DNA of 52,372 bases from a virus (lineage: Duplodnaviria; Caudoviricetes): IMG/VR virus record IMGVR_UViG_3300032229_000930, positions 1 to 52,372 of that record, one strand, 5' to 3'. Shown piece by piece: positions 6,735 to 52,170 of the stretch (the first letter of the stretch is position 1; the number at the start of each line of letters is the position of its first letter). The notes under the pieces are model-generated. The model saw only the letters and a list, made by a program, of their open reading frames with translations, did not search any database and was not told the origin of the DNA. The position numbers and the translations under genes are program-made.

Positions 6735-6764
6735 GCGTTCGGGGTGTTTGCTTGGGTTTGGGTG

Positions 6765-26645: not shown

Positions 26646-28550
26646 ATGGCTCCTGAAGTAAAAATCAAGATCACTGCGGCAGCGGAGCTTTCTGCACTCC
26701 GCTCTCTGAATGATTCTCTTGCAAAGCAGGTCATCCAGGCCAAGGCCCTTGGAAAGGATTATCAAGATCTGGAAAAAGATCTTCAGCGTGTCCAGAAGGC
26801 GATGGCTGATATCAAGCCCCCGTCCTTTCTTGATAAGGGGAAAAATGCACTCAGTGAGATTGTCAAAGAGCTGCCTGTCATTGGAGCCATCAGCCGCAAT
26901 TTCAATGGCCAGACCCCATACGTAGGAGCTGCTGTTGGCGGAGCTGTGCTAGGTGTCGAGGCGGCAAAGTCATTTGGAGAAGGAATCGTAAAAGCCGCTG
27001 AGTACGCCGATCAGATGGAAGAGCTCGGTTCGCGGACAGGACAGTCCGCCGCTGACGCCATCGTAATGACGCAGGCATTTAAAAATGTCGGGTTGGAAGC
27101 AGGCAACGTGGGCCAGGCCGTCAACATGCTTCAGATGGCCCTCACGGGTCTGAATGAGGAGGGGCTGCCCACCAAGGGAGTCTTTGACAACCTCGGTCTC
27201 TCGCTTGAGGCACTCAAGGACATGTCGCCGATCGCGGCGCTGCAGGCCATTAGCGAAAAGATCTCCGGGTTGTCGACAGCCGCTGACAAGACTCGGGCAG
27301 TTAAGGATCTGTTTGGTAGAGCGGGAGGCTCCCTGTTACCCCTCTTGGGCGACAATAAGGCATTCGACACGGCCAAGACTCAGGTAGGTGACCTCGGCGA
27401 AATCATCGAAAAGAATTCCGCTGATTTAGGCAGGTTCGCGGATGCCTGGGCAGGGTTGGACGTTAAGAAGATGCAGTTATTTGCAGGGTTTGCTGCCGAA
27501 CTTTCTGGATCTCTAGGCAGTGCTGCTGACCATATCAATGAGATGGATTTCACCAAGATTGGTGAAGGTCTTGCGAACTTTACAAAAGGTGCCGGTAGTC
27601 TAGCCGGAGATTTTTATGATAATAGTCAGATCCTTCAACACGTCGTTGGAGGCTTTAAGGCTGTCGCAGCGTATGGCGAGCTAAGAAAGGTTCAGGAGCA
27701 AACTGCAGCGACTGATAAAACCAATGCCCAACTAGAAGCCGATCTCAAGGAGCGCATGGCTGACCCGGCCAAGCAAGCAGAACACCTGAGATCCATTGCT
27801 GATTCAGGTGGATCTACTGGAAAGGGTACGATGCCTGTAGACGACGGGGGTGCAAATAGCTCGTATCAACGGCTGCGTACTCGCGATGGCGCTACTGAGG
27901 AAGAGTTAAAAAAGGCTCGTGATGCAGACCGCTTCAAGCGGATGACACCCCAAGAACAACTGGCTGGCATTGATAAAAACCTTGAGGAGGCGAGAACTGC
28001 ATCTAGGCGCACAGGCATTTCGGATGAGGATTATAGTTCCCAAGTTAAAAAAGTCGTCGCCCTAGAGCAACAGCGCCTTGAAGTCCTTGCAAAAATCTCC
28101 GAAGAGAAGAAGAAAAACCAAGAGCTTGAGGCGGCCAACTCCACCAAGCGTGAAGCCCTCGATCTGGAGCTCTCCATCAAGGAGGCTCAAGCCGCAGGAA
28201 ACAAGGATCTCGTCGCCAAGCTCCAGTGGCAGAAGGAGTACACGGCTCTCCTGAAGGCCGGTCTCGATGCCAAGGATCCCGATGCCTACAACAAGGCCGC
28301 TCGTGGGGCCAATGCCTCCATGGCGGATCCTATCGCCAGCGCCCGAGACATCGAGAAGCAGGCCACCTCGGCCGTGCCACTCTCCTCGCTCGGCCGTCTC
28401 GGCATGGCGATGGGTGAGAGCAGCAATGCCGCGCAGACGATCTCTAAACTCCAGGAGCTCATCGTGGCCCAGCAAGGGTCTTCCACGGCCCTCTCGAAGA
28501 TCGAGAAGAACACGGCCGACATGGCACAACAACGCGGAGGCTACCAATGA
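26646..28550 (+). CDS. Tail tape measure protein
   Basis: Ala-rich helical 634 aa; VKIKITA N-terminus, FDNLGLS and LFGRAG..LLPLL motifs. Confidence 0.9.
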   Translation: MAPEVKIKITAAAELSALRSLNDSLAKQVIQAKALGKDYQDLEKDLQRVQKAMADIKPPSFLDKGKNALSEIVKELPVIGAISRNFNGQTPYVGAAVGGAVLGVEAAKSFGEGIVKAAEYADQMEELGSRTGQSAADAIVMTQAFKNVGLEAGNVGQAVNMLQMALTGLNEEGLPTKGVFDNLGLSLEALKDMSPIAALQAISEKISGLSTAADKTRAVKDLFGRAGGSLLPLLGDNKAFDTAKTQVGDLGEIIEKNSADLGRFADAWAGLDVKKMQLFAGFAAELSGSLGSAADHINEMDFTKIGEGLANFTKGAGSLAGDFYDNSQILQHVVGGFKAVAAYGELRKVQEQTAATDKTNAQLEADLKERMADPAKQAEHLRSIADSGGSTGKGTMPVDDGGANSSYQRLRTRDGATEEELKKARDADRFKRMTPQEQLAGIDKNLEEARTASRRTGISDEDYSSQVKKVVALEQQRLEVLAKISEEKKKNQELEAANSTKREALDLELSIKEAQAAGNKDLVAKLQWQKEYTALLKAGLDAKDPDAYNKAARGANASMADPIASARDIEKQATSAVPLSSLGRLGMAMGESSNAAQTISKLQELIVAQQGSSTALSKIEKNTADMAQQRGGYQ

Positions 28551-29898: not shown

Positions 29899-30731
29899 GA
29901 ATGGTCACTCCGCTTGATCCTATCCGTGCTGCCGATCGCAATGCGCTCCTGCTGGCCATGAAGGAGCGGACACCCCGAGAGGGTCCGCGCCCGGTTGCCA
30001 CCGCTGCCTCTCACCCGTGGAAGTGCCGTGTGGAGGCTGGCGAGAAGCCCCGCCAGTGGAAGCTTCGCATGAAGGCTGGCTTCGTGGATGACCGCGAGGC
30101 CCCTGTGGCCTATCTCGCTGAAGCCGACCCACGCGGTTGGAAGATGCCTGAGAGCTTCCCTGCAGCACGTCTGCATGGCGGAGTCTGCGAGCGCTCATGG
30201 AGGGAGAAGGACGATCCTCCGTACCTGCTGCTCGATCTGAAGCGGGATTTCCTTCCCGTGGCCGATGCGGCCCGCCCTCCCTTCTTCATGACGGCCGAGG
30301 CCTGGAAGTTGGATCTCTCCATGTGCTCTGTCTACCTGACGGCGCGGCCTGTGAATCTCATTGCGGGTCGCGTCCTTCCAGCCCGTCATCGCACGTGGGC
30401 TGGGAAGATGCCATCCTCCCGAACGGCCTATCCCTATGGGATCCGAGAGCTTGCCCGCGTCTATGTGCTCGCGGGAAAAGAAGAAGCCGATGCAGCAGCC
30501 TTCGTGCAGCAGCGGGAGTTCTTCGATCTGCATTCTTCCCCAGTGGAGCCAATCATGTTCCTGCCAGACTATCAGCCGATCAATACATCCTTCGGCGGTA
30601 TCGGCTTTGGCCTCGCTGATGGAGCTCTAGCTGGCTTCAACATCGTGAACGACTTACTGACCCGTCAGGTGAATGAGGCCTTGGCCAATATGGCGGTGGG
30701 CACCTCAAGCGTGGAGATGTGGAGCGTATGA
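29895..30731 (+). CDS. Tail protein (N-terminus paralogous to preceding gene)
   Basis: DPIRAADRNAL...HPWK vs DDIRAEDHNAL...HAWK; start at MRMVTP. Confidence 0.6.
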   Translation: MRMVTPLDPIRAADRNALLLAMKERTPREGPRPVATAASHPWKCRVEAGEKPRQWKLRMKAGFVDDREAPVAYLAEADPRGWKMPESFPAARLHGGVCERSWREKDDPPYLLLDLKRDFLPVADAARPPFFMTAEAWKLDLSMCSVYLTARPVNLIAGRVLPARHRTWAGKMPSSRTAYPYGIRELARVYVLAGKEEADAAAFVQQREFFDLHSSPVEPIMFLPDYQPINTSFGGIGFGLADGALAGFNIVNDLLTRQVNEALANMAVGTSSVEMWSV

Positions 30732-30922
30732 GAACCATCGTCGAGAACCCTGCTCCCCTCAATGCCAATGGGAACTTCCCATTTAAGGTGACTCCATTCC
30801 CTGCTGACTGGCTTCTCAAGTTCACCTCCCTCGGAAAAATCAAAGACTCTGCAACCCCCAGATCCTCCCAGGCTGACAAGCCAAGCATCAACAAACTCAC
30901 CTCCCTTGAATCATGGACCTGA
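30728..30922 (+). CDS. Short tail-region ORF, possibly truncated
   Basis: ATGA-coupled start, 64 aa. Confidence 0.4.
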   Translation: MRTIVENPAPLNANGNFPFKVTPFPADWLLKFTSLGKIKDSATPRSSQADKPSINKLTSLESWT

Positions 30923-33510
30923 AACTCGGCCTCGACATCCAAAACAAGGCGCTCCTCTCCCCCGATGGGACGCCGCTCACCCTTCCACCACTGGTCCAAG
31001 GAGACGATATCTCCATCACCATTCAGGGGATGGAACGTCTGCAGAATGGAGGCTACCTGCGGGTCCCGATCAACTTTTCCCGGATTAAGATCGGCATCGG
31101 CCTCGTCGATGCACCACCGCTGGAGGGAACATTTGCCCTCGAAATCGCTGGTGATCGCACTCCTGCCATCGCCTTCAATGCCTCGAAGCAATTCATCGCA
31201 GGAAAGCTCAATGATCTCCCGAGTGTCATCTCACGGGGTGGCTTACGTATCTCCGAAAACGGCGCTCCCAATGTCTATCTCATCGCTTGGAATGACAAGA
31301 CGGTCACCACACCGATCGCGGTCGTGGAGAAGAAGCTCTTCCCCCACTGCTTCTCCCGAGTCGTCATCCTCTCGCAGGATGCCGGAACGCTCTTCATCCT
31401 CAAGATCATCCAGGCCCCGCTGGCATTCACAGATGCCTTTTCCCTGCCGCTAGCTCCCCCTGTCACTGTCGTGGCAGTGCGCTCGGGCACAGGTACCCGC
31501 AATGAGATCCAGCGCATCAATATCCCCCGCGATGCGCAGGGAGAGTTCTCCCTGACCTGGAATGGCCTGACGACCGTCATCATTCCGGTGGCCGAGGCTA
31601 CGGCTGCAACGATTGCCACTGCGCTTAATGATCTCTACTCGGACTCAGTCGCCCGCTTCAGGGTCACCCAGCCCGGAACGGGATACTATTATGTGGAGTT
31701 CATCGGTCCCCTTGCAGCGGCCGCGCAGGCGACGATCTCGGCGACCATGGAGAGTCAACAGCAACTTACCACCCCCACTGGTACTCTCGACCTCAATAGC
31801 GTGGGACTGGAATACCTTCTCGCAGGCAAGTCCTCCCTGCTCATGCGCCTGGAGATTGAAATCACCACGGCAGACGGTGCCATCGGCACACCGATCCAGC
31901 GGGAAGTCACCATCCTCAATGACATGCTCGACTCGACCATGGCCCTGGTTCCAGATCCCAAGTGGATCGAGGAGCAGCGGAGCAAGTCGGTCGTCGTCGA
32001 ATACAACTGGGAGGCCCCACCGACCTTCCTCGGGACCATCGGCTATGCCAACAACGCAGGAGATGCCGTGGCAAGCGACTGGACCTTCGTCCATAACATG
32101 GGCACCCGCGATGTCCACATCAGCGTACGCGACAATGTGACCGGGATCCGCGTGCCGGATAATGAGTACGAGGCGCTGATCCTCGATACGAACACGGTCA
32201 AGATCATCTTCCCGGAAGCTCCTCCTGCTAATCGCTACGCAGTCCTCATCACGGCCGCGAATGTGGGTGAGCACTTCCGCTCCCACCACCATGCCATCAG
32301 TGATATCGACGGCCTGCAGGCCATCCTCGATGTGCTCACAGGCGGAGGGAATCCGCTCGATCTCTGGCCCACCGTCCCAGTCTCCAAACTCCCTCAGATT
32401 CCTTTCTCGAAGCTCATCGGTTCCCTTCCGGATGACAAGGTCCCGGCCAATATCCCGCGACTGGATGAGGAGGGATTCCTGAATCTCTCTCAGCTTCCAC
32501 CCGAGATCCCGCGTCTCTCCGAGGATGGGTCGCTGATCTTTCGCTCTCGCAATGACGAATCGTGGTCCCTCCTGCTCAATGCCAATGGTCAGCTCAACCC
32601 TTCTCGTCTTGGTGATCTCTCCAATTACCCAGGCTTCACCGATTCCGTCCGCAAGGTGATCGGCGGCGGGGGTACCGGGTCGAGTGATCTCTTCCTTGGC
32701 TTCACGATTCCCTCTTGGAAAGAAATCTATCCCGGTCGCGTGGCAGCACCCGCCACGGATGACGCCCTCGATGCGATGGCCCTTCCCAAGCCGGGCGGTC
32801 TCCTTCCAGCCGTCACCACGGCCGCTGCCATCGAAAATCTCCCACTCCCCTTGCCAGCTCCTGCAGGCTATGCCGGGAGAGTCTACCAGCACGGCGGATC
32901 CTCCTCGATCATCCTTCCTGGTGGGGCTGGTCGTAAGGCCGGTACGCTCCTTCCTGGAGAGCATGTTGCAAGCGATGGGCGTTTCTGGTTCAAGGTCTCC
33001 CGCCAGGGATCCACCACAAGCTGGCATCCATCGGACTTCGACCGTGAACTCGTGCTTCTCGACATCAATGAGTCGATGCTCCCGGAGGACGCTCTGGCGA
33101 CCCTGAAGATCGACTTCGAGCTGCAAGTGCTGCGCAGTCAAACCCGATGCCAGTGGGTGCTGGTGATGGAAACAGGCACCTTCTCTTCTATCGCAAGCCC
33201 TGCCGGGACGAACATCTCCGGCATCACCTGGGCTGCACCGATGCTGACTTGCCCTCTGCATCTGACGAGTATCCGGACCCCTCACAGTTTCGGACTGCGC
33301 TTCACGCGAGGAGCAACCGGTATCACAGCCGAAACCAAGCTCTACCGCTCGCCGTGGCAGGCCTCGGCATCGGCTCCGGCTGCCGCTGGATTCCTGATCC
33401 GGGCACGACTCATCCGATTCGACACGGAGGACTCGCTGAGCGATCCGCGCGGCTATGTCTACCTGAACTTCAACCCCACCAAGCAATCCCTCGCCACGAT
33501 CGTCCTATGA
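30913..33510 (+). CDS. Large tail/baseplate-fibre protein
   Basis: 865 aa; NEIQRI..GEFSLTWNG repeat-type motif, HNMGTRDV, HHHAISDIDGLQ fibre motif. Confidence 0.7.
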   Translation: MDLKLGLDIQNKALLSPDGTPLTLPPLVQGDDISITIQGMERLQNGGYLRVPINFSRIKIGIGLVDAPPLEGTFALEIAGDRTPAIAFNASKQFIAGKLNDLPSVISRGGLRISENGAPNVYLIAWNDKTVTTPIAVVEKKLFPHCFSRVVILSQDAGTLFILKIIQAPLAFTDAFSLPLAPPVTVVAVRSGTGTRNEIQRINIPRDAQGEFSLTWNGLTTVIIPVAEATAATIATALNDLYSDSVARFRVTQPGTGYYYVEFIGPLAAAAQATISATMESQQQLTTPTGTLDLNSVGLEYLLAGKSSLLMRLEIEITTADGAIGTPIQREVTILNDMLDSTMALVPDPKWIEEQRSKSVVVEYNWEAPPTFLGTIGYANNAGDAVASDWTFVHNMGTRDVHISVRDNVTGIRVPDNEYEALILDTNTVKIIFPEAPPANRYAVLITAANVGEHFRSHHHAISDIDGLQAILDVLTGGGNPLDLWPTVPVSKLPQIPFSKLIGSLPDDKVPANIPRLDEEGFLNLSQLPPEIPRLSEDGSLIFRSRNDESWSLLLNANGQLNPSRLGDLSNYPGFTDSVRKVIGGGGTGSSDLFLGFTIPSWKEIYPGRVAAPATDDALDAMALPKPGGLLPAVTTAAAIENLPLPLPAPAGYAGRVYQHGGSSSIILPGGAGRKAGTLLPGEHVASDGRFWFKVSRQGSTTSWHPSDFDRELVLLDINESMLPEDALATLKIDFELQVLRSQTRCQWVLVMETGTFSSIASPAGTNISGITWAAPMLTCPLHLTSIRTPHSFGLRFTRGATGITAETKLYRSPWQASASAPAAAGFLIRARLIRFDTEDSLSDPRGYVYLNFNPTKQSLATIVL

Positions 33511-34247
33511 TTCCTGTCATCTCTACTATCACCTCCATCCTCGGCTATGCGGAGCGCGAGTTCTGGGTCTATCAACCCGCCGTCACCCAAGGTGCTCCAG
33601 TCACTGAGTGGAGCTGGAGCGGGCTACCGCCGGGTGTAACGGTCAACACCTCCACAGGAGCCATCACCGGCCCTGCAACCAATACTGGTGTCTATCTGGC
33701 GACCGTCACCGCGACCAACTCCAGCGGCACTGCATCGCTTGTCATCCCCATCGGCATCTTCGCTGCAGGATGGCAGCAGCAGGGGGCAATCGCGGTGGAT
33801 GTCGACCTCAACACAGGCGTGGTCACACCGATCATCTCGGGATATAAGGATGGGTCGCCGGTGATCTATGGTCAGCAGGGAGCCACTCTGATGATCGATG
33901 TGGGCTTCACGCAGAATGCCGGGGTGAGCCTCATCCCTCTCTACCCCTCGGAAGTGGCGATCACGCTGAAACAATTCGACTCCGAGGCCGCACCGATGTG
34001 TGCCTCCGATGGCACCTTCCAAGTCCTCGGTAGCTATCAGTCCACACGCTACCGTCTGCTGCTTCCTCTCACGGGTGATCTGCTCGCATCAGCACTCAGC
34101 GACAATGAGCAGGACAAGGGGACGCTCCTCACGCTGCTGGGTGAAATCCGCTGGGAGCAACCCATTGATTTCAACTCTGAGGCGAAGCTGATCCCGCGCT
34201 CTTCACTGACCTTCTCCGCACAAGTAGGCAAGGCCCTCGCTGCATAA
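33507..34247 (+). CDS. Putative Ig-domain (He_PIG-like) virion protein
   Basis: GLPPGVTVNTSTGAITG..TGVY..TVTATN; start at MIPVIS. Confidence 0.75.
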   Translation: MIPVISTITSILGYAEREFWVYQPAVTQGAPVTEWSWSGLPPGVTVNTSTGAITGPATNTGVYLATVTATNSSGTASLVIPIGIFAAGWQQQGAIAVDVDLNTGVVTPIISGYKDGSPVIYGQQGATLMIDVGFTQNAGVSLIPLYPSEVAITLKQFDSEAAPMCASDGTFQVLGSYQSTRYRLLLPLTGDLLASALSDNEQDKGTLLTLLGEIRWEQPIDFNSEAKLIPRSSLTFSAQVGKALAA

Positions 34248-34258
34248 TATCTCTCTCG

Positions 34259-35179
34259 ATGGAGGCTATCACCACATCAGGGCCATTCGACAAGACGCTC
34301 TACCTGGGACAGCCCATAAGTTTCCGCCTCGCATTCCTAGGGATGTACGGAAAGGCGGTGGTCAGCGTAGCGCTTTCACCCCTCCCTCCTGGATTAACTT
34401 CGTCGCTGAATCCATCAGCCTATGACCAATCTTTCATTTCTGGAGTTCCCACTGAATTAGGTGTTTTTACCGTTACACAGTCTTTTGTACTAAAGAATGG
34501 CAGCTATCCGATTTCCCCAGTTTTTCCGATCACATTCACGGTCACGAAACGTCAGCAGCGCATCGACGACTTCCTGCCTGTCTCACCGAAGCGCCCCGGC
34601 CAGCCTCCCTTCTCAATCGCACTGCCGGTAGCATCCAGCGGATTACCCGTCACGGTCACGGTGAAGAGTGGCCCGGCCACGATCTCTGGCGAGATGATCA
34701 CCCTCACGGGAACTGAGGGATCGGTCGTCCTCGCAGCAAACCAAGCTGGCGATGAGGACTATGCAGCAGCCACAGAGGTGCTGATGACCTTCATGGTCTC
34801 AGACACGAACTCCGCACCTGTGGCCGAGATGCCCGATGCCTACGTCACGAGTGGTGTCTACTTTGGGTGGGCGGTAGCCCGACAGGCCGGTATGGAAGGC
34901 CATCCCGTGCGTCGGTCGGCATGGACTGATCGCTGGCTTTATTTTTACAATGGACTCTGGTGGGTCATGCCGTCATCTGGAACTCCGAGAGTCGTGAGGA
35001 CGGTGGATTTCACAACCGATGACTTTCTGGCCACCGACTGGACCAATCTTTCTGCGACTTGCATCACTTCATCGGCTATCTCAGGCGGCGGCGCGGCACC
35101 CTGCCCGCTACCCTACGACCCGATCTCGCCAGCCATCGGACCTCTTGCCATTTCCGGGGCCTCCACCCTGCCTAAATAA
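34259..35179 (+). CDS. Ig-like virion protein with C-terminal DUF2829/Tad2-like domain
   Basis: LPPGL..ISGVPT and ASSGLPVT Ig-like segments; G.PVRR.AW...DFLATDW. Confidence 0.65.
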   Translation: MEAITTSGPFDKTLYLGQPISFRLAFLGMYGKAVVSVALSPLPPGLTSSLNPSAYDQSFISGVPTELGVFTVTQSFVLKNGSYPISPVFPITFTVTKRQQRIDDFLPVSPKRPGQPPFSIALPVASSGLPVTVTVKSGPATISGEMITLTGTEGSVVLAANQAGDEDYAAATEVLMTFMVSDTNSAPVAEMPDAYVTSGVYFGWAVARQAGMEGHPVRRSAWTDRWLYFYNGLWWVMPSSGTPRVVRTVDFTTDDFLATDWTNLSATCITSSAISGGGAAPCPLPYDPISPAIGPLAISGASTLPK

Positions 35180-36360
35180 TGTCCTCGGGAGTCGTAGCCT
35201 TTAACTTCCAGACCGCCTACTCAGCGGCGATGTCAGGTCATAGGATCCGTCGCATGGCGTGGACCGACCGATGGCTTCGCTTCTACAACGGACTCTGGTG
35301 GGTCTTGCCCTCATCCGGTACGCCGCGCGTGGTGACGACGGCAGATTTTTCAGCGGATGAGTTCAAGGCGCTCGACTGGACACACCTCTCTCCCGCATGC
35401 CTGAGTGCCCTGCAAACCTCTGAGCCAACTAAGTTCCCAGTCTGCCCGCTTCCATACCGCCCCCCGCAGCCTCAGCCTGTACCATCTCAGGGTGGTGGCT
35501 CTGCTGGTGGCTCTGCTGGTGGCTCTGCTGGTGGCTCTCCCCCTTCAGGAGCGCCCGGAGAACCATCCATGCCATTCTCAGGTGGAGGGGGCGGCGGCAC
35601 GATTAGCCCTTCTGGTTCGATTAGTCCACCGCGTCCCGAGCCTACGGAGATTTCATGGCCAACTCTCTCCCTTGAGGCGGCCTCTGTGGAAGAATGCCTG
35701 CTTAATGATGGCACTGGCAAATCCTCTTTCCAAATTGCTGGCTCAGTCAGCCTCGGCACCACCGATGACTCTCATGCTCAGGAATACTATTTTGTGACCG
35801 TCCGGGTCGGAGGGAAGCACCACGGCTTTCTTATGCCGCTTGGGGCAACCCGATACTTTGACGACACGATTGGCCCAGTCCTCATTGGCCATGGGCAAAT
35901 TTCAGTCACGGCCTCCGCAGTCATGAGTCATGGTCCAGGAACCAACATTACGGCCCCTCCCGTCACAATTCCGGTACCTGGTCTGTGCGCAGACCTAGGA
36001 TTTGACAGTGCGAATCCGGAGGATGGGACCGTTCTGCAAATCAAAGAGCAGGGTGTAGAGTCGGCGTTTTATAGCGCTCAGGGCTTTGATGGCACATCAC
36101 TCGGTCTGAGCGTCCGCAATCCATTGAGCCGCTCTATCACCTTGACTGTCTCAGGGAGCGTAGACGATGACGTGTTGTTCGACGGGGAAGTCTTTGAGCC
36201 GGGTATGCACCTCTACGGCGACACGTTCAATGGCGCGCACAACTTCTCGCGGCGGATCACTCTTGCGCCTGGTGCCACGGTGACGATCCAAGGTAAGGAC
36301 AACTTTGAAGGAGGATCCGGAATTTCCTGCACCCTTATTGCCCAAGAGATTTCAGACTAA
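35179..36360 (+). CDS. Protein with N-terminal DUF2829/Tad2-like domain, Pro/Gly linker and beta-rich C-terminus
   Basis: FQTAYSAAMSGHRIRRMAW...DEFKALDW; last gene of prophage. Confidence 0.65.
   Translation: MSSGVVAFNFQTAYSAAMSGHRIRRMAWTDRWLRFYNGLWWVLPSSGTPRVVTTADFSADEFKALDWTHLSPACLSALQTSEPTKFPVCPLPYRPPQPQPVPSQGGGSAGGSAGGSAGGSPPSGAPGEPSMPFSGGGGGGTISPSGSISPPRPEPTEISWPTLSLEAASVEECLLNDGTGKSSFQIAGSVSLGTTDDSHAQEYYFVTVRVGGKHHGFLMPLGATRYFDDTIGPVLIGHGQISVTASAVMSHGPGTNITAPPVTIPVPGLCADLGFDSANPEDGTVLQIKEQGVESAFYSAQGFDGTSLGLSVRNPLSRSITLTVSGSVDDDVLFDGEVFEPGMHLYGDTFNGAHNFSRRITLAPGATVTIQGKDNFEGGSGISCTLIAQEISD
35494..35538 (+). repeat. 12-bp tandem repeat GGTGGCTCTGCT x3.75 (GGSA linker)
   Basis: Directly visible. 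Confidence 0.9.
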
Positions 36361-36420
36361 TCACGCAGGCCAGCTTCAGCGTCTCTGCAGAGATCTTGCA
36401 GCCCTCCTGAAAAAGACTGT

Positions 36421-36454
36421 TTTCCCAAACCTTTGTCATTTTCTCCCAAACCTC
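36421..36454 (-). repeat. Right-end putative transposase binding sites (TTTCCCAAACCT, TTCTCCCAAACCTC)
   Basis: Inverted copies of left-end sites. Confidence 0.8.
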
Positions 36455-36537
36455 GCGTCGCTATACTCCTGCAGACCCGCATAAATACTAGGGTCAGCAT
36501 TTTGATGAGTGGTCAAAAAGGGGCCTTTTTGGGCCAA

Positions 36538-36559
36538 GTGTCCCTAAAAGTGTCCCTCC
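36538..36559 (+). repeat. Putative integrase arm-type sites GTGTCCCTAAAAGTGTCCCTCC (left arm)
   Basis: Exact 22-bp copy at 52053-52074 near attR. Confidence 0.8.
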
Positions 36560-36697
36560 TTGGTGGTTGTTGGGGACTGCTAGAACCAACTCCGGCACTA
36601 GGCGACGACTACTCGCATCTTGCTCCCGGTTGGGTGTCAGGGCATGGGAAATTCCGGTCACGCTGCTCTGCACAACCCGGAGGAAAACACCCCCACC

Positions 36698-37780
36698 ATG
36701 CAGGCACGATATCGGCTCTACCGCCGGTCCAACCGCTCCCACGGTACCTACTACGCCCAGGACAGCACCACCGGCGCTCGCGAAAGCCTTGGCACGAAGA
36801 ACAAGGCCGAGGCCCAAAAACTCCTCCAGGCCAAGAATGACGCGCAGATTCAGCCCGTCCTCAGCCGCGAGCTGGCCAAAGTCTACCTCCACACCCAGGA
36901 CCCCGACTTTGCCACCCGCACCTGGTTCGATGTGGCCCGCCTCATCGACAACTCCTATGACGGCAATACCAAGACCCGCTTCCAGAAGTTCCTGAAGAGC
37001 CAGCCCGTTCGTCGCCTGATGTCTAGGAGACTCATCGAGACCTCAGCCTCGGATTTCCTCAGCGTCTTCTCACACCCGCGAGCCGGGGTCTCCACCAACG
37101 TCCAGCTCCGCATCCTTCACAACCGGGCCCTCGACCTTGAGTGGATCCTCAAGCCCGTCCTCTCCCGGCGAGCTTGGCCCAAGATCCGCTACGCCTCCCG
37201 CCATGGCATCACCCGCGAGCAGCATGAGGCCGTCCTGCGGGTCACACCCAATAAAGAATACCGCATTTACTTCGAGCTCCTCTGGCACACCGGCGGCAGC
37301 CAGACCGACATCGCGAGCCTCACCGCCGAAAACATCGACTGGGGCACCCGCAGGCTCTACTACGAGCGACAGAAACTCCGTTCCAAGGGCATGGGGCACG
37401 CCTGCCTCGTCATCGGAAAGGCCCTCGAAGCCATCCTCCTCCAGCTCCCCAAGGAAGGTCCCCTCTTCCCCAACCTCGGCACCCTCAAGGAAAGCAAACG
37501 CAGCAACTATTTCTGGACCAAGCGGGTCAAGGCTGGCCTGCCCGACGGTATCGTCCTCCACTCTTACCGCTACGCCTGGGCAGAGCGTGCCCAGTCGGCA
37601 GGGATGCCCGAGCGCGAGGCCATGGCCCACCTCGGTCATGGGAGCAAAGCCGTCCACCGTGCCTACGCGAGGTCCGCCGACCGCGTCACCATGCCCCTTG
37701 AGTACTACGAGGAACAGGCCTCTAAGAAGTTCATCGACCTCAGCGCCGAACTAGCCAAGAAGCACCATGCTGTCGCTTGA
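36698..37780 (+). CDS. Tyrosine recombinase/integrase with atypical box I
   Basis: Arm-binding-like N-terminus (RESLGTKNKAEA), LWHTGGSQTDI, HSYR, LGH and HRAY. Confidence 0.88.
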   Translation: MQARYRLYRRSNRSHGTYYAQDSTTGARESLGTKNKAEAQKLLQAKNDAQIQPVLSRELAKVYLHTQDPDFATRTWFDVARLIDNSYDGNTKTRFQKFLKSQPVRRLMSRRLIETSASDFLSVFSHPRAGVSTNVQLRILHNRALDLEWILKPVLSRRAWPKIRYASRHGITREQHEAVLRVTPNKEYRIYFELLWHTGGSQTDIASLTAENIDWGTRRLYYERQKLRSKGMGHACLVIGKALEAILLQLPKEGPLFPNLGTLKESKRSNYFWTKRVKAGLPDGIVLHSYRYAWAERAQSAGMPEREAMAHLGHGSKAVHRAYARSADRVTMPLEYYEEQASKKFIDLSAELAKKHHAVA

Positions 37781-38794: not shown

Positions 38795-40819
38795 TCAGGA
38801 CGGTCTAGCCGCCATGACTTTCTCGGCAAGATCGATCATCTGCTTTCCAGAAACAATTTTCAGGAGGACTTTGTAGACTTCTGCCTTTAGTTGCCTCATT
38901 TCATCTGGATTAGCTGCTGCATTTGGAAAGCGGTGGTAGGCATCTTCAATTTCTAAAGCCAATTCTTTGGATTGAGCGTCATCAAATCCTTCGCTTTTGA
39001 GTTCCCAATACACCGCGAAGGGTCCGGCATCTAAGCCGCTTTCTTTGCGTGCTTTTTCTGCGGCAAATCGTTCAGTGACTAAAGATTCAAGTTCCTTGAG
39101 GGCCTTCTCCGTTGTTGTCTGCCTCTCATCTAAAGCCTCCATCACTTTGGCAGCGCGTTCAGAAATTGAAATCAGATGGGGTTCCTGTCCTGCGCCATCT
39201 CCTGTCTTTTGAAGTGATCGAATAAGATTGATGACCTTACCCTCATCTGGCCCCTTCTTTTTGCGGAGAGCATTCAAAGCCTCTTCGTCAAATTCCACCG
39301 GTTTTGTGAGACGGTCTAATCCATGAGCGGCAGCATGGGTTTGAACCAGTTTTGCAGTTTTGTTGGCAAGATCTCCGATGAAGCTCGTCGACTTACCATA
39401 CGCCTCTTTCATCATCGCATAGATGTCAGCCAGAGCGTTGTAATTGCCTATGTCGTTAGATAGATCAGGATCAGGAGAGAGGATCTCGTAGAGGGTCTCA
39501 GTTTCTTTGAAAAGCTCCGTGAACTCCTCTCTGGCCTCTTTTGTAAAGAGTGTTTCATAAAGCAGTTTCTCCAACTGCTCATCCCTCGGCAGACCAGAGG
39601 TTGCACTCAGATACTTTTGAGCTGGCCCATCCATCAACGTACGGAAGCGTTGAAACAACATGTCCAAATCCTCAATAACTCCCGAGTAGTCCTCGGAATC
39701 AAATGAAAGGGCTTTTCTCAAGTCCTTGAGTATTCCGACAAAATCAATGATCAAACCACAGGGCTTTTCAACACCACGGGCATCTTCATAGGGACGGTTA
39801 ACACGAGCGACCGCTTGAAGGAGAACATGATCCCTCATCGGTTTATCGAGATACATGCAGTAGAGGATCGGCGCATCGTATCCCGTTAGGAGTTTATCCG
39901 TAACGATCAGAATCTTTGGTTGGCTGGAGGCCTTGGGAAATTCCTTTCGAACTGCCTTCTCTGCATCATCATCAAGTTGCTGTTTAGCGACAAGCGGGCG
40001 TTCCACCGCATCGTTTGAGTTCTTGGTATAAACGGCCTGCGAGAATTCTGTTGGTAAAAGCTGATCGAGGGCCTCCTTGTATTTAGCGCATGCTTCTCGG
40101 TCCACGGCCACGAGGAAGGCTTTGTAGCCCAAGGGCTCAACATTCTCGCGGAAGTGCCTTGCAACAAAGGCGGCCACTTTCTTGATTCGATCATCCGCTT
40201 TTAAAAAGGTCTTCAGATTGACAGCTCGATCCAAAGCACGATTGAGATCGTCGATATCTGAAACTCCCTCTGTTTCGGCAAGTGAGAGGAATTCCTTTTC
40301 AAGGAGAGCCTCCTCCAAGACTACATCACTCGGTGCTAGACTATGGCGCAGCTTCAGTGTCGTGCGATCCTTGATGGATTCAGAAATCGGATATTTGTCC
40401 AGATAACCATCTGGATCCTGCAACCCAAAGGTCTTGAACGTACCTTCACCACGTTCTGTTTTCGCAATAGGAGTACCTGTAAATCCAATGAAAGTTGCAT
40501 TGGGAAGGCCCCCCATTAGGTAATTCCCAAAGTCACCGCCTGTGGAGCGGTGCGCCTCGTCGATGAGCACAAAGACATCCGAGCGCAGATTAATTTTTGC
40601 GGGCATCCCATCGAACTTGTGAATCATGGAGATGATCAACCCCCTGAAATCCGCCTTCAGTAGCTCTTCGAGTTGAGCGCAGGTATCGGCACGGCGCACC
40701 TGAACGCCTGATTGACTCACCTCTCCAAGAATCCGCTCCACCCATCCGGAGAGCTGTCCTTCAAGTTCGTTTCTATCCACCACTAGGAGGACTGTAGGAG
40801 TAGCACTCTGGGTTTTCAT
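38795..40819 (-). CDS. hsdR: Type I restriction subunit R, C-terminal (helicase) part
   Basis: VVDRNEL, IDEAHR, GFTGTPI, LLTGYDAP, LLQAVARVNR. Confidence 0.9.
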   Translation of the reverse strand: MKTQSATPTVLLVVDRNELEGQLSGWVERILGEVSQSGVQVRRADTCAQLEELLKADFRGLIISMIHKFDGMPAKINLRSDVFVLIDEAHRSTGGDFGNYLMGGLPNATFIGFTGTPIAKTERGEGTFKTFGLQDPDGYLDKYPISESIKDRTTLKLRHSLAPSDVVLEEALLEKEFLSLAETEGVSDIDDLNRALDRAVNLKTFLKADDRIKKVAAFVARHFRENVEPLGYKAFLVAVDREACAKYKEALDQLLPTEFSQAVYTKNSNDAVERPLVAKQQLDDDAEKAVRKEFPKASSQPKILIVTDKLLTGYDAPILYCMYLDKPMRDHVLLQAVARVNRPYEDARGVEKPCGLIIDFVGILKDLRKALSFDSEDYSGVIEDLDMLFQRFRTLMDGPAQKYLSATSGLPRDEQLEKLLYETLFTKEAREEFTELFKETETLYEILSPDPDLSNDIGNYNALADIYAMMKEAYGKSTSFIGDLANKTAKLVQTHAAAHGLDRLTKPVEFDEEALNALRKKKGPDEGKVINLIRSLQKTGDGAGQEPHLISISERAAKVMEALDERQTTTEKALKELESLVTERFAAEKARKESGLDAGPFAVYWELKSEGFDDAQSKELALEIEDAYHRFPNAAANPDEMRQLKAEVYKVLLKIVSGKQMIDLAEKVMAARPS

Positions 40820-41859
40820 ACTTCCTCGGTTGATGGAGCTTTCCCCTCAAGCAAAAGACGGGCAGCAGTGATCATGGTAAAAGTTTTTCCCGAGCCCTGC
40901 GTGTGCCAGACAAGCCCCCTTGTTTTCTCTGGATCAAGACAGCGCTCGACGACCTTGGTGGCTGCACGGGTCTGGTGCTGTCTTAGCACTGTTTTCCTTA
41001 ACTCATCATCCTTCATGAAGAAGACAATCCATTCCTTTAGAAGCATCATGAATCTTCTGCGGTGAAAAAAAGACTTTACCTGCGTTCCATAGGAAGGAGG
41101 TGCTACAGGGCTCTCCGCAGCTAGAGGAAGTTCATCAAGCGGATTATCAGAGTGCAGAGCGCTTGTTGGTGGCGGAATATCTGCGTATCCCATTCCTTTC
41201 ATTTCAGTAAGCTGCTGCCTCCAGTTGAAGACACCTTTTCTTTCGTAGCTCCAGGTAACGCCGTAGAAATATTCAATCAGGTGAGTGATATTGAAAACTT
41301 GCGGTGAGGACATCATTTCCGGTGTCTCCACTTCGTAGCGACGCAGCTGGAGTAATGCTTTCTCCATCGCATTTTTCAGCTTTGGATTTTTGCACTCTAC
41401 CAGTGCCACAGGTATCCCATTGATCAGGAAAACGACATCGGGACGATTGCCTTTTTTCCAATGCTTCCTGAAGGCCCATTCCACTGTGACTTGGAAGACA
41501 TTCCTCCCCGGGTCCAGAGGGTGCTCAAAGTCTATCACTTTGACATTGAGAGAACGCTTTTCAGAAGGAACAAAAACTGTTTTCAAGCCCCTGATCCATT
41601 CTAGCAGATGACGGTTTCCTTCCATGGTAGGAGGAACTGCCTCTATGGAGGCGATCACCGAAGCCACATTGTCAGAGGTGACAACTCCAGGGTTCAACCG
41701 AAGGAGTGCAGCTTCCAGGTGTGGATAGAAGAAGAGTCCTTCTTCACCGCGCCGAAAGGCTAGGGCATCGGTTTCCGAGACAAAATCCCATCCGGCATCC
41801 ACCGCATGGCGCACGAGGGGAAACTGGACGGAAGAAGCTTCAAGGGCGAGGCTGCTCAT
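40816..41859 (-). CDS. hsdR: Type I restriction subunit R, N-terminal (nuclease plus Walker A) part
   Basis: RPDVVFLINGIPVALVECK, QLRRY, WHTQGSGKT. Confidence 0.9.
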   Translation of the reverse strand: MSSLALEASSVQFPLVRHAVDAGWDFVSETDALAFRRGEEGLFFYPHLEAALLRLNPGVVTSDNVASVIASIEAVPPTMEGNRHLLEWIRGLKTVFVPSEKRSLNVKVIDFEHPLDPGRNVFQVTVEWAFRKHWKKGNRPDVVFLINGIPVALVECKNPKLKNAMEKALLQLRRYEVETPEMMSSPQVFNITHLIEYFYGVTWSYERKGVFNWRQQLTEMKGMGYADIPPPTSALHSDNPLDELPLAAESPVAPPSYGTQVKSFFHRRRFMMLLKEWIVFFMKDDELRKTVLRQHQTRAATKVVERCLDPEKTRGLVWHTQGSGKTFTMITAARLLLEGKAPSTEEV

Positions 41860-41906: not shown

Positions 41907-41974
41907 GGCTCGGCGTCCACCGAATCCTGACGTTATGCGTCAGGGGTTACTAGGTGACGCGGGGCCCCTTTTTT
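41907..41974 (+). ncRNA. Candidate DUF3800-associated structured RNA, antisense to the 3' end of the DUF3800 gene
   Basis: Outer stem 41907-41921/41953-41966, inner hairpin CCTGACG-TTATG-CGTCAGG, T6 run, TTGACG at 41872. Confidence 0.6.
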
Positions 41975-42801
41975 GTCTTCGTTGAGTCGTGGTGGACATC
42001 GGCAGGGACAAATGCCCAGTGCAGGTAGGGCTCCTGCCACTTGCCAGTAAGCCCCTCCCTCAGACCTGTGCTGATCCCGATATTCAATCTGGGACGGATG
42101 CGTTGGATATGTGTGTAGATGGCCTTGTAGAGCTTTTCCTTGGCGATGGTTCTCTTTCCCCTCCTGCGTTCACCGGGTAGCTTCTCCTTGTGCTTGTCAT
42201 TCAGTCGGAAGCTCATCGAGCCGAGGACAATATCAAGACATTGTGCCAGAACATGATCATGAGAGCGGATCTCCGCGATATCTTCCTCTCTGATCTTGAA
42301 ACCTGCATTGCGGATCCAGGGGTCATTCTGCAGGGCGAGAATAAAGCCCTTAAACTGAGAAGCTCCCTCACGTGTATGGGGGAGCTCATCGAAATGGATG
42401 CGTAGCCAACAAGGAGTGATGCCTCCCTCACGGTGCCTGAATCCGAAGGCATGTTTCAGAAACTGGTAGTAGAGTTTGAAATACCGTTCCTCAAATGAGC
42501 TGCCATCACCGCGACGTGTTTGAGCATTCTGTTGGAACATGATACGAACTCGAACACGCCTTGCCTCGATTTCTTCAAAGAAGGCTTCAATCAATGCCAG
42601 GTATTTATCCAAGTAGCGCTCGGTGACCTTGGACCACTTTACCTCTCCATAGAAATTGAGATCCACTTTCTTCTGCCTGAGCCGATCGGAGACGATATCG
42701 TAGTCGTTTGATCCGATTAGCACGCCTCCATAAAAGTTGGAGAAGAACTCCCCCTTTGCATCGGACTCATCGCAGAAGATGATGTATTCTTTGTGGTTCA
42801 T
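41950..42801 (-). CDS. DUF3800 family protein (RNase H-like fold)
   Basis: IFCDES, EVKWSKV, HFDE and S.DHVLAQCLDIVLG motifs. Confidence 0.85.
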   Translation of the reverse strand: MNHKEYIIFCDESDAKGEFFSNFYGGVLIGSNDYDIVSDRLRQKKVDLNFYGEVKWSKVTERYLDKYLALIEAFFEEIEARRVRVRIMFQQNAQTRRGDGSSFEERYFKLYYQFLKHAFGFRHREGGITPCWLRIHFDELPHTREGASQFKGFILALQNDPWIRNAGFKIREEDIAEIRSHDHVLAQCLDIVLGSMSFRLNDKHKEKLPGERRRGKRTIAKEKLYKAIYTHIQRIRPRLNIGISTGLREGLTGKWQEPYLHWAFVPADVHHDSTKTKKGPRVT

Positions 42802-42828
42802 GCTGGAGCGGCTTTCAGATGACAGAGT

Positions 42829-44229
42829 TTATGACCCCAGATTTACCATGCGGATGCCTTCGGCCTTACGAACAATATGCTCAACCGGTGATCCCCCCAG
42901 GCCAATTTCCTTCAAGAGAATAACCCAAGTCAAAGATTCCAAACACCATGAAAATCGCCCAATTTCCGCGCTGGTGAGCAACCTCTTTTCATCCACGTTT
43001 TCATGATGATGAGTGAGATGATTGCGGGTATAGGCTATTTTTGATGCAGCATTCTCTATATCCCCGATAAGGCGAGGGCTCTCTGCTTTATGTGCTGTAA
43101 AAATATCCAAAAGCTTCTGCTTTAGAGAGCGACTGTTGAGTGAAAGTTTTCCTTTAGCCCAAGGCCAGATCTCATTCGGCAGCACCGCTTCTGCTGCTGC
43201 AACCCGGCTTGCATGTTCATCCTTAGGTAGATCCTTCGATTCAAAGCAAGAGGAACGGGAATGGTAGATTTCAAGCGCCTGAACAAGGAAAAGGAATCGT
43301 GCCTCTAGATAGAGAGAGTGATGGAGGGCCACGGCACTAAACAAGGCGAGCATTGGTTCCAGCTCTGAGCAAACTCGATTCCATTGAACAACCAGTTGAT
43401 CCAACTTATCTTTAACGGTACTGAACGAAGCGATCATCTCATGCGGCAGAGGATCTCGGGATCGGTTTTGTTTGCGCTCCGACTTCCCACTCCGGAGCAG
43501 AAGTCCCTCGCATCCAAACATACTAGACCCCGGTTGATACGGATCTTCAGTGAAAACACGGACCTCAGTCGCATGAACGGAGGTGCCTATCAGCATACCA
43601 AAAAGCCGAATCACCCAGGGAACCCAGTGGCTGGATACCTCTGCCATTGATCGAGGCCCTTCAAAGTGAAAGCACACACTACTCCCATGACGAAATTGAT
43701 CTTCATCCCATGAAGTAGACCTCAAAACACTATCTGAAAATCGGATTTGAACGCCACTCTCTACAAAAAAGGGTAAATCTATCACTTCTACCTGAGAGTA
43801 AGTGGGTTGTTGGTTTTCTGATACACTTGGAATGAGTAAGTTGCGCCCAAACCAGCGGTTCAGTAATTCCAGATTGATTGATACAGCTCGTACAACCGGT
43901 TCGCTCCACGAGTTGATATGCAACCCTTTTACAGCAGCGAGCGCAAAAATCTCCCAATGTTCTAGACCCTGAGAAGAACCATGCTCAGATACACCACATC
44001 CAAAGAGAGTGACCGGACGATTCTCCTCATCTTGTCCATGTATGACCTCAGTAATCTTAAAAGAGTCCCCATTTGCAGATTGAAGTAGGATGTCTTCGAC
44101 TCCTTTTTCACATGGGGACCAAATCGAAAGCTTGGGAGAGCCGGCGCCGACATCCAGGGTTCCTGGAAGAGGTTGCCCCTCTGCTCCATGAATCCACCAT
44201 CGACCTCGAATGGAATCCTGACTTCTCAT
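42829..44229 (-). CDS. ApeA-like protein (ApeA N-terminal domain plus HEPN RNase)
   Basis: GRWW..GTL..IHG....VTL N-terminus; FLFLVQALEIYH; RNHLTH (RX4H). Confidence 0.8.
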   Translation of the reverse strand: MRSQDSIRGRWWIHGAEGQPLPGTLDVGAGSPKLSIWSPCEKGVEDILLQSANGDSFKITEVIHGQDEENRPVTLFGCGVSEHGSSQGLEHWEIFALAAVKGLHINSWSEPVVRAVSINLELLNRWFGRNLLIPSVSENQQPTYSQVEVIDLPFFVESGVQIRFSDSVLRSTSWDEDQFRHGSSVCFHFEGPRSMAEVSSHWVPWVIRLFGMLIGTSVHATEVRVFTEDPYQPGSSMFGCEGLLLRSGKSERKQNRSRDPLPHEMIASFSTVKDKLDQLVVQWNRVCSELEPMLALFSAVALHHSLYLEARFLFLVQALEIYHSRSSCFESKDLPKDEHASRVAAAEAVLPNEIWPWAKGKLSLNSRSLKQKLLDIFTAHKAESPRLIGDIENAASKIAYTRNHLTHHHENVDEKRLLTSAEIGRFSWCLESLTWVILLKEIGLGGSPVEHIVRKAEGIRMVNLGS

Positions 44230-45407
44230 GCCAATGTTTCCCTCAAAAAAGAATCAACCCGCCTCTTGCCGCTTATCAGATCGTGAAGCAGTGATTGAAA
44301 AAGTTCGCGGAGGAGCTTCTGACGCGCTTCGTGGTAAGAGAGCTTCGCGTCGATTGTTTGGAGGATAGAAGCGATTTCTTGCTGTTCATCCAGACAGGGT
44401 AGCAACACCGGAAACGCTTTGAGCTTGGTAGAATTAATGCAGGCTAAATTGGTTGTCTTGTGTGCAACCGATAGGAAATATGATTTTCCGTAAGGACTCT
44501 GGGCAAGGTAGGCAAAGTAACGAGGCAAAAGCTTCAACTGGTCAGTTCGAACGGCAAAAATATGGTTCTGGTGAACACATCGTTCAATCTGCCCCTCCCA
44601 TATAAAACCTCGGCCCAGCTTGTCGAAATCCCCCCCCTCCGTCAGAACCACATCGCCCTCTTGTAAAAGACTCGATTCTATATCCCTCCTAGAAGCTTTT
44701 ATGGTTTTAATTTCACGAAGGTCTAAGTGCCCATCTTGTACGTTTGCTACTCTCAAATAAGGCACTTCAACATCATCAACAGACTGTTTCCTCGTATTCT
44801 TGGCTATGCCTGTTTGTACAAATGCGCATTCGTTGAGGGCCATTTCTTCCCAGGAAACCGGTACTACTCCAAAACGAGTTTCTCGCGGGGCAGTACCATG
44901 AAGCCCCCTACTGAAAAGGTGGTGGAAGGCAGCTTTCTTCAGCTCCCGCGTAACCTTGATAATCTCGGATTCAACTTCAACAGCTTTCCAAGCATTTCTC
45001 AAAACATCTGCTATCTGATTCTGCTCTCCAATTTCTGGAATCCTAACTGGTACCGAATAGGCCGTTTCTCGGTTTAATCCCGGAACCACGGCATGACCAT
45101 TCATCTGCTCCAGTCCTAACGAGAGAAGCAAAAAGTGAAGAAAATCCCAATTATGATTGGCTTTGTTGACCACATAGTAGGTGGTATCAATCGGCCAATA
45201 CGATTTCTCGGTGAAGTTCACCGCGCCAACAGAACCTTTGCGTCCAATAATTATACCTGGTCCGTCTAGGAGGCTTTCATTGTGCCAACCTACAATTCCA
45301 TTGGACCCGTAGACTGGGACTTCACCAGAAGTACGTGCTGATTGGGGTAGACTCTTGCCGTAAGCAAGCTCAATTTCTTCACCCAGAATACTCTCTCTCC
45401 AGCTCAT
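44226..45407 (-). CDS. hsdS: Type I R-M specificity subunit
   Basis: Two TRDs separated by conserved EQNQIA / EQQEIA helical regions. Confidence 0.93.
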
Positions 45408-47260: not shown

Positions 47261-47290
47261 TCCTTTATGTATGATATAGCAAATCAATCA

Positions 47291-52042: not shown

Positions 52043-52074
52043 GTGTCCCGAGGTGTCCCTAAAAGTGTCCCTCC
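52043..52074 (+). repeat. Putative integrase arm-type sites (three GTGTCCC) of right arm
   Basis: GTGTCCC at 52043, 52053 and 52065; 22-bp identity with 36538-36559. Confidence 0.8.
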
Positions 52075-52170
52075 GGAGTAGTTTTTGGTAGTCAGCGAGT
52101 AGGTGCTAGTTTTTCTTGAGTACTCTGTAGAGCCCCATAAAATAGGGCTCTAAACCCGCAGATCAGCGGC

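Follow-up and report, generated by a model that had tools for sequence, protein, structure and literature searches.

A duplicated, insertion-less Tad2-like domain in two proteins at the distal end of a prophage tail operon

Tad2 is known as a free, soluble sponge that sequesters glycocyclic ADP-ribose (gcADPR), the signal of Thoeris anti-phage systems. Here we analyze IMG/VR virus record IMGVR_UViG_3300032229_000930 (Duplodnaviria; Caudoviricetes), a 52,372-nucleotide stretch of DNA that we refer to in full as the window. Two adjacent genes in its tail operon, encoding the 306-residue protein P0001 (34259-35179, + strand) and the 393-residue protein P0002 (35179-36360, + strand), each carry a reduced version of the Tad2 core fold. 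An earlier reading of this DNA from its letters alone (the sequence-only reading) had proposed a Tad2/DUF2829-like domain in both proteins, serving either as an anti-defense sponge or as an oligomerization module that joins two tail proteins. Our analysis bears out the fold and the remote homology, finds the Tad2 insertion and most of the ligand-binding residues gone, and favors the second of these two uses as the better fit.

The structural basis of signal binding by Tad2 has been described for several phage proteins. Solved Tad2 proteins self-associate, forming a homotetramer with pockets built by its interfaces; a V-shaped dimer within this assembly is made by α2 and β2, and gcADPR is held by W25, W73, N26, and D79, with T78, I63, and T65 (10.1101/2023.05.01.538930). 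The W25-N26-(G27) loop, equivalent to W21/N22/G23 of HgmTad2, contacts the ligand phosphates (10.1101/2023.05.01.538930, 10.1101/2023.11.15.567273), and the S76-Q77-T78-D79 loop corresponds to HgmTad2 S90/T92/D93 (10.1101/2023.11.15.567273). The HgmTad2 mutants W21A/N22A and S90A/T92A/D93A each abolish gcADPR binding, and the gcADPR site is reported to be highly conserved, with about 1% of homologues predicted to be non-functional (10.1101/2023.11.15.567273). Cyclic dinucleotides are bound in HgmTad2 and SptTad2 by a 35-41-residue insertion (β2-β5); SPO1 Tad2, which has a short insertion, is described as giving no gel shift with the other cyclic nucleotides tested in that study (10.1101/2023.11.15.567273).

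P0001 comprises a He_PIG-like immunoglobulin-like (Ig) domain, a second Ig-like domain, and a C-terminal reduced Tad2-like domain followed by a C...CPLPY tail. P0002 begins with the same type of domain, which leads into a Pro/Gly/Ser linker and a variable, β-rich C-terminal part. The two domain copies (copy 1, 34856-35071, + strand, P0001 residues 200-271; copy 2, 35194-35409, + strand, P0002 residues 6-77, E 1e-28 with a hidden Markov model (HMM) of the family) align without gaps and share 45 of 72 residues (63%; BLASTP E 7e-31). At the DNA level 139 of 216 bases are identical, and a repeat scan independently detected a 71% repeat over the same domain pair (34892-35062 versus 35230-35400). 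The 72 codons divide into 24 identical ones, 21 with synonymous differences, and 27 with non-synonymous differences, giving a non-synonymous divergence (dN) of 0.32, a synonymous divergence (dS) of 1.55, and a dN/dS ratio of 0.21. This ratio points to an old duplication held by purifying selection, which on the sequence evidence is acting on both copies. The sequence-only reading had noted the shared domain, and had taken the many synonymous DNA differences as a sign of selection on the protein; both observations hold. A search of the whole window gave these two matches and no third domain copy.

The similarity extends beyond the folded domain. Each copy is trailed by C...CPLPY, with the CPLPY motif, which that reading had also remarked, at 35102-35116 (+ strand; P0001 C282-Y286) and at 35443-35457 (+ strand; P0002 C89-Y93). 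In alignment A2 of the five closest relatives, C76 and C90-P91-x-P93 are invariant, and the CPLPY cysteine is the second of the two conserved cysteines. The genes themselves overlap in a TAATG (35177-35181), in which the P0001 stop codon TAA overlaps the ATG of P0002; P0002 is thus probably translationally coupled to P0001 through this stop-start overlap. Inspected by eye, neither protein has an obvious N-terminal signal peptide. A promoter and terminator scan of 30500-37000 gave background-level scores.

We modeled copy 1 within an 82-residue stretch (window 34835-35080) with AlphaFold2 (AF2). The 116-sequence alignment gave a predicted local distance difference test score (pLDDT) of 89.9, superseding a poor model (pLDDT 45.7) from the shallow five-sequence alignment A2. 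In a Foldseek search of the PDB, ranks 1-23 were all Tad2 structures (SPO1, ModTad2, HgmTad2/AcrIIA7, and SptTad2; query-normalized TM-score 0.58-0.66), and unrelated entries followed with probabilities below 0.4. Alignment of the domain to the Tad2 structures with VIA-align gave Z scores of 8.3-9.8, with an r.m.s.d. of 1.6-2.5 Å over 61-66 residues at 20-21% identity. In a Foldseek-independent search of 48,161 representative chains, just two reached Z of at least 5, both of them Tad2; the next, unrelated score was Z 4.5, and the nearest virion entry (8qkh_S, from the neck of phage 812) scored Z 4.5 with an r.m.s.d. of 4.2 Å. Matches in BFVD were mostly to proteins described as Tad2-like domain-containing, and those named Tad2-like are 133-270 residues long.

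Profile comparisons agree with the structural searches. An hhalign comparison of the family with 15 Tad2 homologues from named phage records gave a probability of 91.5% and a pairwise E of 8.8e-7. When the family profile was searched against PDB sequences, all three matches at E≤10 were Tad2, although each is weak on its own (E 0.27-1.6); a single-sequence search of the same PDB sequences gave chance-level matches. The two families share an N-terminal aromatic-x-x-A...G-x-x-V-x-R-x-x-W motif and a C-terminal L-A-x-D-W motif. Pfam itself does not detect the relationship: copy 1 scores 12.9 bits against PF11195 (E 0.17, model positions 2-71 of 73), below the gathering cut-off of 25 bits, copy 2 has no PF11195 match at E≤10, and a six-frame PF11195 search of the window gave no match at E≤10. 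Among the 116 relatives only three reach PF11195 at E≤0.01, the best at 5.5e-4. We conclude from profiles and model together that the domain is a remote Tad2 homologue with the Tad2 core fold, invisible to Pfam at the PF11195 cut-off. The structure and profile comparisons that the sequence-only reading had suggested as a check of its Tad2 assignment thus both point to Tad2.

The model differs from Tad2 at the places that matter for ligand binding. In the 82-residue numbering it contains α1 (12-20), a four- to five-stranded antiparallel sheet (strands at 25-27, 33-38, 41-46, and 51-52), α3 (61-65), and a last short strand. Strand β2 (33-38) runs into β3 (41-46) through a two-residue turn, the Tad2 insertion with α2 being absent, and hhalign opens a gap of about 22 columns at the β2-β3 insertion of Tad2. 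Because this long insertion is absent, a pocket of the Tad2 type for CBASS (cyclic-oligonucleotide-based anti-phage signaling system) signals cannot exist in the domain as aligned and modeled, and we consider the known CBASS-signal pocket ruled out here. At the gcADPR site, the equivalent of W25 is kept and is invariant in the family, and the equivalent of D79 stays acidic, as D63 in P0001 and as E both in P0002 and in the family consensus. The N26-G27-K28 segment is replaced by a threonine and a deletion (WT--DRW, read as WTDRW), the columns of S76, Q77, and T78 are variable, and W73 has R or T opposite it and no aromatic residue, in a middle part of the alignment that is of low confidence. 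Judged from the aligned residues, the known gcADPR pocket would be at best much altered. Positions conserved in at least 90% of the 116 sequences include R26, R27, W30, W34, D58, D68, W69, and T70.

The domain defines a sizeable family. An exhaustive profile search started from the five close sequences of A2 (E≤0.001) yielded 191 cluster representatives, mostly proteins of 200-400 residues with the domain at the N-terminus. We used 116 of these 191 for the alignment behind the model and the conservation analysis, and counted architectures in 153 proteins. The domain is N-terminal in a longer protein in 105 of the 153 and C-terminal in 16; 21 proteins are at most 135 residues long, some of which may be fragments; five carry two full tandem copies (P0036, P0040, P0046, P0069, and P0103); two show partial double matches; and four have no match to the family HMM. 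Downstream of the domain, the 116-sequence alignment has no shared consensus, and other Pfam matches among these members, such as LamG, are single cases. P0069 and P0103 have 3-5 He_PIG repeats ahead of the tandem copies, and P0036, built of an Ig-like part, two successive domains, and a β-rich part, resembles a fusion of P0001 and P0002.

Several searches delimit the family further. Word-based homologue searches returned only two, two, and one proteins. Among 401 genomes of the phylum of G001, only G001 itself matched. Searches for related loci gave no loci with the single domain in viral contigs, with A2 in genome contigs or in metagenome contigs, or with alignments A8 and A9 in viral contigs. 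The short members P0030, P0037, P0043, P0126, P0133, and P0139 (alignment A7) have a conserved C-terminal W...PPP.P.F tail, which may be a second small interaction motif to judge by its sequence; the tandem-copy proteins end in a similar PPP.D...P tail. P0022, a repetitive protein of 3328 residues that the profile search matched through 40 short stretches, is probably a low-complexity artifact, because the domain HMM does not match it.

The genomic setting of the family is a tail operon. In the window, the late block on the + strand includes terminase, a portal-MuF fusion, capsid, neck proteins, a LamG protein, and a tape-measure-like protein (26646-28550, + strand; phrog_9483, tail length tape measure, E 2.8e-9) with which the distal tail block starts. 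Four unnamed distal genes follow, then an 865-residue conserved protein (30913-33510, + strand; PHROG matches only to its Ig-like region), a 241-residue He_PIG Ig-domain protein (33522-34247, + strand; PF05345 E 4.4e-8), and finally P0001 and P0002. We compared this order with that of nine related loci, four from IMG/VR (L003, L004, L027, and L028) and five from metagenome-assembled genomes (MAGs), whose hosts are Chthoniobacteraceae, Spartobacteria, and Verrucomicrobia; all relatives with named hosts are in Verrucomicrobia. A P0002-type gene occupies a fixed place in the tail module in all nine loci, and all nine encode homologues of the 865-residue protein. In L003-L009 the order is tape-measure-like gene, g28547, g29317, 865-residue protein, He_PIG protein, and domain protein, some of these loci being truncated at the upstream end, and L027 and L028 share the core of this order. 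A He_PIG homologue immediately precedes the P0002-type gene in L003-L009 and L028; in L027 one precedes a domain pair. This pair is a second instance of adjacent copies: a short open reading frame (ORF) that ends in the domain is overlapped by an ORF that starts with it. A further large gene stands 3' of the domain gene in five of the nine loci (L003, L005, L006, L007, and L008); that of L008 resembles the window's LamG protein, and that of L003 has weak, below-cut-off matches to collagen and β-propellers. One Spartobacteria MAG contig, which holds both L007 and L009, has the same tail module twice, each time with a P0002-type gene; the two copies face opposite ways and are separated by about 40 kb.

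Comparison of close relatives reveals a mosaic. P0005 is about 98% identical to P0001 from residue 97 onward and diverged over residues 1-96, and P0003 aligns with P0002 over residues 1-275 (67% identity), the last ~115 residues being unalignable. The domains are therefore the constant center of these proteins, and the outer ends are exchangeable. In a quick tree of 77 columns, supported by the Shimodaira-Hasegawa-like approximate likelihood-ratio test (SH-aLRT) only, one clade (SH-aLRT 98) unites the domains of P0001/P0005, of the 111-residue P0006/P0007, and of P0002/P0003/P0004. It lies far from a main clade that contains 13 C-terminal copies, all tandem copies, and the L027 copies, and the label for a C-terminal domain changes at least seven times on the tree. 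From this placement and these changes it follows that the domain was copied onto neighboring genes more than once. Outside the domain, P0001 residues 31-101 show weak similarity (E 0.002) to the He_PIG domain encoded by the gene before it; we set aside the idea that this part of P0001 is a recent copy of that gene, the similarity being marginal. For the C-terminal part of P0002, the ESM Atlas model is poor (pLDDT 0.57), with TM-score 0.37-0.50 matches mostly to Ig-like and β-sandwich clusters; no ESM Atlas feature match was found for this low-confidence model. The P0002 linker contains perfect 12-nt tandem repeats that encode (GGSA)n (35493-35538, + strand; repeat family D7). The linkers of P0003 and P0004 have other Gly/Ser/Pro compositions, and because they differ, linker length may vary by slippage.

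We propose, with a probability of roughly 55%, that the domain acts as a structural junction or docking module through which exchangeable Ig-like and β-rich tips are attached to the distal tail, and that in this phage it is used twice, with P0001 and P0002 joining each other or sharing one site. Under this proposal, the insert-less Tad2-like domain would be the constant part by which accessory proteins are assembled in a group of prophages that encode them at the distal end of the tail operon, most commonly as a P0002-type N-terminus followed by a Pro/Gly-rich linker and an exchangeable β-rich C-terminal part. In this phage a lineage-specific duplication placed a second copy at the C-terminus of the Ig-domain protein P0001, encoded immediately upstream and translationally coupled. 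The two copies could pair, or could bind next to each other at one tail site; the hub would then consist of the conserved domains, with the exchangeable N-terminal Ig domain of P0001 and the exchangeable C-terminal part of P0002 pointing outward as host-interaction tips. The adjacent pair in L027 and the five tandem-copy proteins suggest that copies pair. Two hallmarks of distal-tail accessory proteins and anchored fibers are present, namely a conserved position in the tail block and a constant module with exchangeable domains, and of the two uses offered by the sequence-only reading, reuse of the Tad2 fold as an oligomerization module joining two tail proteins fits best.

Several observations weigh against this proposal. 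Tail fibers are usually trimers, whereas solved Tad2 is a tetramer. The case for pairing is drawn from fused (Rosetta-stone type) and adjacent forms only; a complex prediction for the domains of P0001 (A3) and P0002 (A6), run without controls, scored 0.02 twice against a mark of 0.32, and we count it neither for nor against pairing. Seven of the nine related loci have one domain copy, so a partner copy is not required, and the 21 members of at most 135 residues look like free small proteins. One of these short members, P0088, matches the first protein of the L027 pair exactly across the domain. The presence of P0001 and P0002 in virions is likewise something we infer from sequence: whole-protein scans of both against Pfam, PHROG, and NCBIfam matched no family, so that no family in these collections names them as tail proteins, and their place, after the tail genes and ahead of the integrase, is one at which temperate phages also encode non-structural cargo. 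Finally, because the invariant tryptophan equivalent to W25 and the acidic D79 position are both retained, a pocket in the domain is still conceivable.

This last point, together with the Tad2-like fold itself, is what speaks for the sponge. In that account, a late or virion-carried oligomer of both copies would bind gcADPR-like or cyclic-nucleotide signals and blunt Thoeris or CBASS, perhaps the CBASS of the window itself. Tad2 homologues are diverse and are reported to inhibit CBASS, Pycsar, and three Thoeris types (10.1101/2025.08.24.671296), a CBASS lies within the same attachment (att)-bounded element, and small free family members exist. The domain nevertheless lacks the β2-β3 insertion, whereas cyclic-dinucleotide binding needs 35-41 residues there (10.1101/2023.11.15.567273), and with it α2, half of the V-shaped dimer contact (10.1101/2023.05.01.538930). 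Of the gcADPR site it has neither the WNG loop, in which N26 and G27 are deleted or replaced, nor the W73/SQTD loop, with S76, Q77, and T78 variable and no aromatic equivalent of W73, in a site whose reported conservation leaves only about 1% of Tad2 homologues predicted to be non-functional (10.1101/2023.11.15.567273). Tad2 sponges are also expected early and in bulk (10.1101/2023.05.01.538930), and to be small, variably present, and encoded outside structural operons; SPO1 tad2 lies among small genes distant from its tail genes, whereas P0001 and P0002 are tail-operon proteins of 306 and 393 residues and the P0002-type gene is syntenic in nine of nine tail loci. The sponge offered by the sequence-only reading thus finds little footing, and we consider it very improbable. 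We give equally little credence to a variant in which paired domains, in trans in P0001/P0002 or in cis in the tandem proteins, would form a composite pocket at the invariant Trp, the Arg-Arg pair, and the Asp that binds a nucleotide-derived host signal, so that the tail proteins would have a second use as a late or virion-tethered sponge or sensor, and might for instance protect the induced prophage from the CBASS of the same element. If it were true, free Tad2 sponges would be offshoots of a virion module, or the reverse.

A different account keeps the domain in the tail and dispenses with contact between the copies: each would bind the same conserved tail component, such as the He_PIG or the 865-residue protein, and the duplication would have given P0001 the same address label as P0002. 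The seven single-copy loci, in which the domain works without a paralogous partner, the He_PIG gene, which in every locus directly precedes the domain gene or pair, and the conserved N-terminus with variable C-terminus, which is the usual layout of anchored fibers, all suit this account. The five tandem-copy proteins are more easily explained by pairing, and solved Tad2 relatives self-associate (10.1101/2023.05.01.538930); we regard independent docking as unlikely. If the Trp-rich domain itself bound a glycan or another ligand on the host surface, the linker and other domains serving as spacer, this would account for the many conserved aromatic and charged residues in so small a domain (those at 90% or more in the 116 sequences among them) and for its association with Ig-like domains typical of virion-surface proteins. 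We think this improbable: a conserved domain whose flanks are exchanged among close relatives is the opposite of a receptor-binding tip, and no carbohydrate-binding module matched above Z 2.2, which is weak evidence. To a similarly small degree we credit the possibility that P0001 and P0002 are cargo absent from the virion, such as lysogenic-conversion or other late accessory proteins, whose genes happen to close the tail operon. In the window the pair ends the run of phage genes ahead of the integrase, and the L009 domain gene is the last phage-like gene before ORFs judged host-like by eye. Set against this are the position conserved in nine of nine loci, with further large genes downstream in five, the apparent translational coupling, and the normally patchy distribution of cargo genes among relatives.

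The relation of the gene pair to the CBASS needs restating. A tRNA-Ser gene (tga; 181-269) lies at the left end of the window, and the 22-bp 3' end of this tRNA (249-270) is repeated exactly at 52171-52192 and nowhere else within three mismatches. Because there is a single pair of these 22-bp att repeats, the phage, its integrase, a type I restriction-modification (R-M) system, the CBASS, and a HipA gene form one att-bounded insertion of 51.9 kb, and the defense genes may be prophage cargo rather than a host island. We rejected a tandem arrangement of phage and island with a middle att site, since no third copy of the 22-bp core occurs within three mismatches. The G+C content shifts from about 0.58-0.60 to 0.45-0.51 beyond 38 kb. 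The gene after P0002 encodes a tyrosine integrase (36620-37780, + strand; PF00589 E 1.4e-7). The CBASS comprises two genes (47267-49443, + strand), for the patatin CapV (47267-48238; PF01734 E 5.4e-26) and a CD-NTase (48235-49443; PF18144, PF21654); no Cap2/Cap3-type gene was recognized beside it, the one downstream ORF scanned having no match. The claim that the tail genes stand next to a CBASS was right that the CBASS is real; it is 10.9 kb from P0002, with the integrase and the type I R-M operon between, and so is not adjacent. The related claim that the phage sits in a CBASS island gives way to a single element within one att pair at tRNA-Ser.

Other features of the window are as follows. 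The start of the CBASS overlaps the divergent hsdM start by about 20 nt, and HsdM (45404-47287) has an N-terminal helix-turn-helix domain. The type I hsdR lies in two overlapping ORFs (38795-41859, - strand), one with HSDR_N and the start of the ATPase (40816-41859) and one with the rest (38795-40819), and from its sequence looks frameshifted or split. Between hsdR and hsdS, inside the R-M operon, are genes for DUF3800 and ApeA-like HEPN proteins (41950-44229, - strand). A 36-nt repeat of 86% identity, holding GTGTCCCT direct repeats, occurs at 36538-36573, just upstream of the integrase gene, and at 52053-52088, some 85 nt short of the right att copy, and could represent arm-type binding sites of the recombinase. 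Window positions 1-23 exactly repeat an internal part of the tRNA-Ser (196-218) and may be what is left of a further tRNA copy or of a previous insertion immediately upstream. In the phage portion, the LamG protein (22934-24733, + strand) contains 120-nt and 57-nt tandem repeats (23797-24549) that encode a recurring YY.DG..GTG.Y. On the strand opposite to the late genes, a 395-residue TniB/AAA_22-type ATPase and a 630-residue protein without family match are encoded side by side (5544-8660, - strand). This ATPase and the portal-MuF fusion (15951-18110) hint at a Mu-like origin, although the element carries a tyrosine integrase and uses tRNA att sites.

The family is a diverged branch of the Tad2 fold that Pfam misses and that occurs in a structural setting; canonical DUF2829 domains fused into longer proteins also exist. 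Among the papers listed for Tad2 and DUF2829, no title or abstract opening mentions tail-associated or insert-less Tad2 domains; the tables of two reports, with hundreds to thousands of Tad2 homologues, may already hold members or fused forms (10.1101/2023.05.01.538930, 10.1101/2025.08.24.671296). If the structural proposal is true, it gives a first clue to the function of a module that recurs, unannotated, in prophage tails of the Verrucomicrobia type, and cautions against annotating every Tad2-like fold as anti-defense. It would also offer a natural test case of a small oligomerizing fold that moves between connector and ligand-sponge roles, and the repeated copying onto neighboring genes, with both cis and trans forms, makes the pairing idea directly testable.

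Compared with described systems, the domain has most in common with Tad2 (PF11195; SPO1 gp34.65, ModTad2, HgmTad2/AcrIIA7, and SptTad2), with which it shares phage origin and the succession of α1, antiparallel sheet, α3, and last strand. It is about 24 residues shorter, with a tight turn in place of the β2-β3 insertion and α2; WTDRW stands where Tad2 has WNGK, and the W..SQTD loop is kept only in its acidic residue. Moreover, this family is mostly fused to long proteins (105 of 153 with an N-terminal domain), and the P0002-type gene is fixed in a late tail operon, whereas SPO1 tad2 is found among small non-structural genes. Fusion as such is not peculiar to it. The view that known Tad2s are small stand-alone proteins does not cover all cases, as canonical DUF2829 also forms the C-terminus of longer phage proteins: AUV59053 of Escherichia phage PMBT57 (161 residues), gp05 of Alcaligenes phage QDWS595 (at least 185 residues), and VVP001_091 of Vibrio phage VVP001 (at least 187 residues). 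These proteins resemble P0001 and P0002 in that the Tad2-like domain is not free-standing; they differ in that, by alignment, they retain the canonical WNGK and W.PS..D motifs and the insertion, and in that in the three records they are not annotated beside tail genes. We know of no described tail-fiber anchor domain with a Tad2-like fold. In organization, the P0002-type proteins are like N-terminally anchored tail fibers and receptor-binding proteins, which also combine a conserved N-terminal module, a flexible linker, and an exchangeable distal domain, likewise have their genes in a set position following those of the distal tail, and undergo the same mosaic exchange between close relatives.

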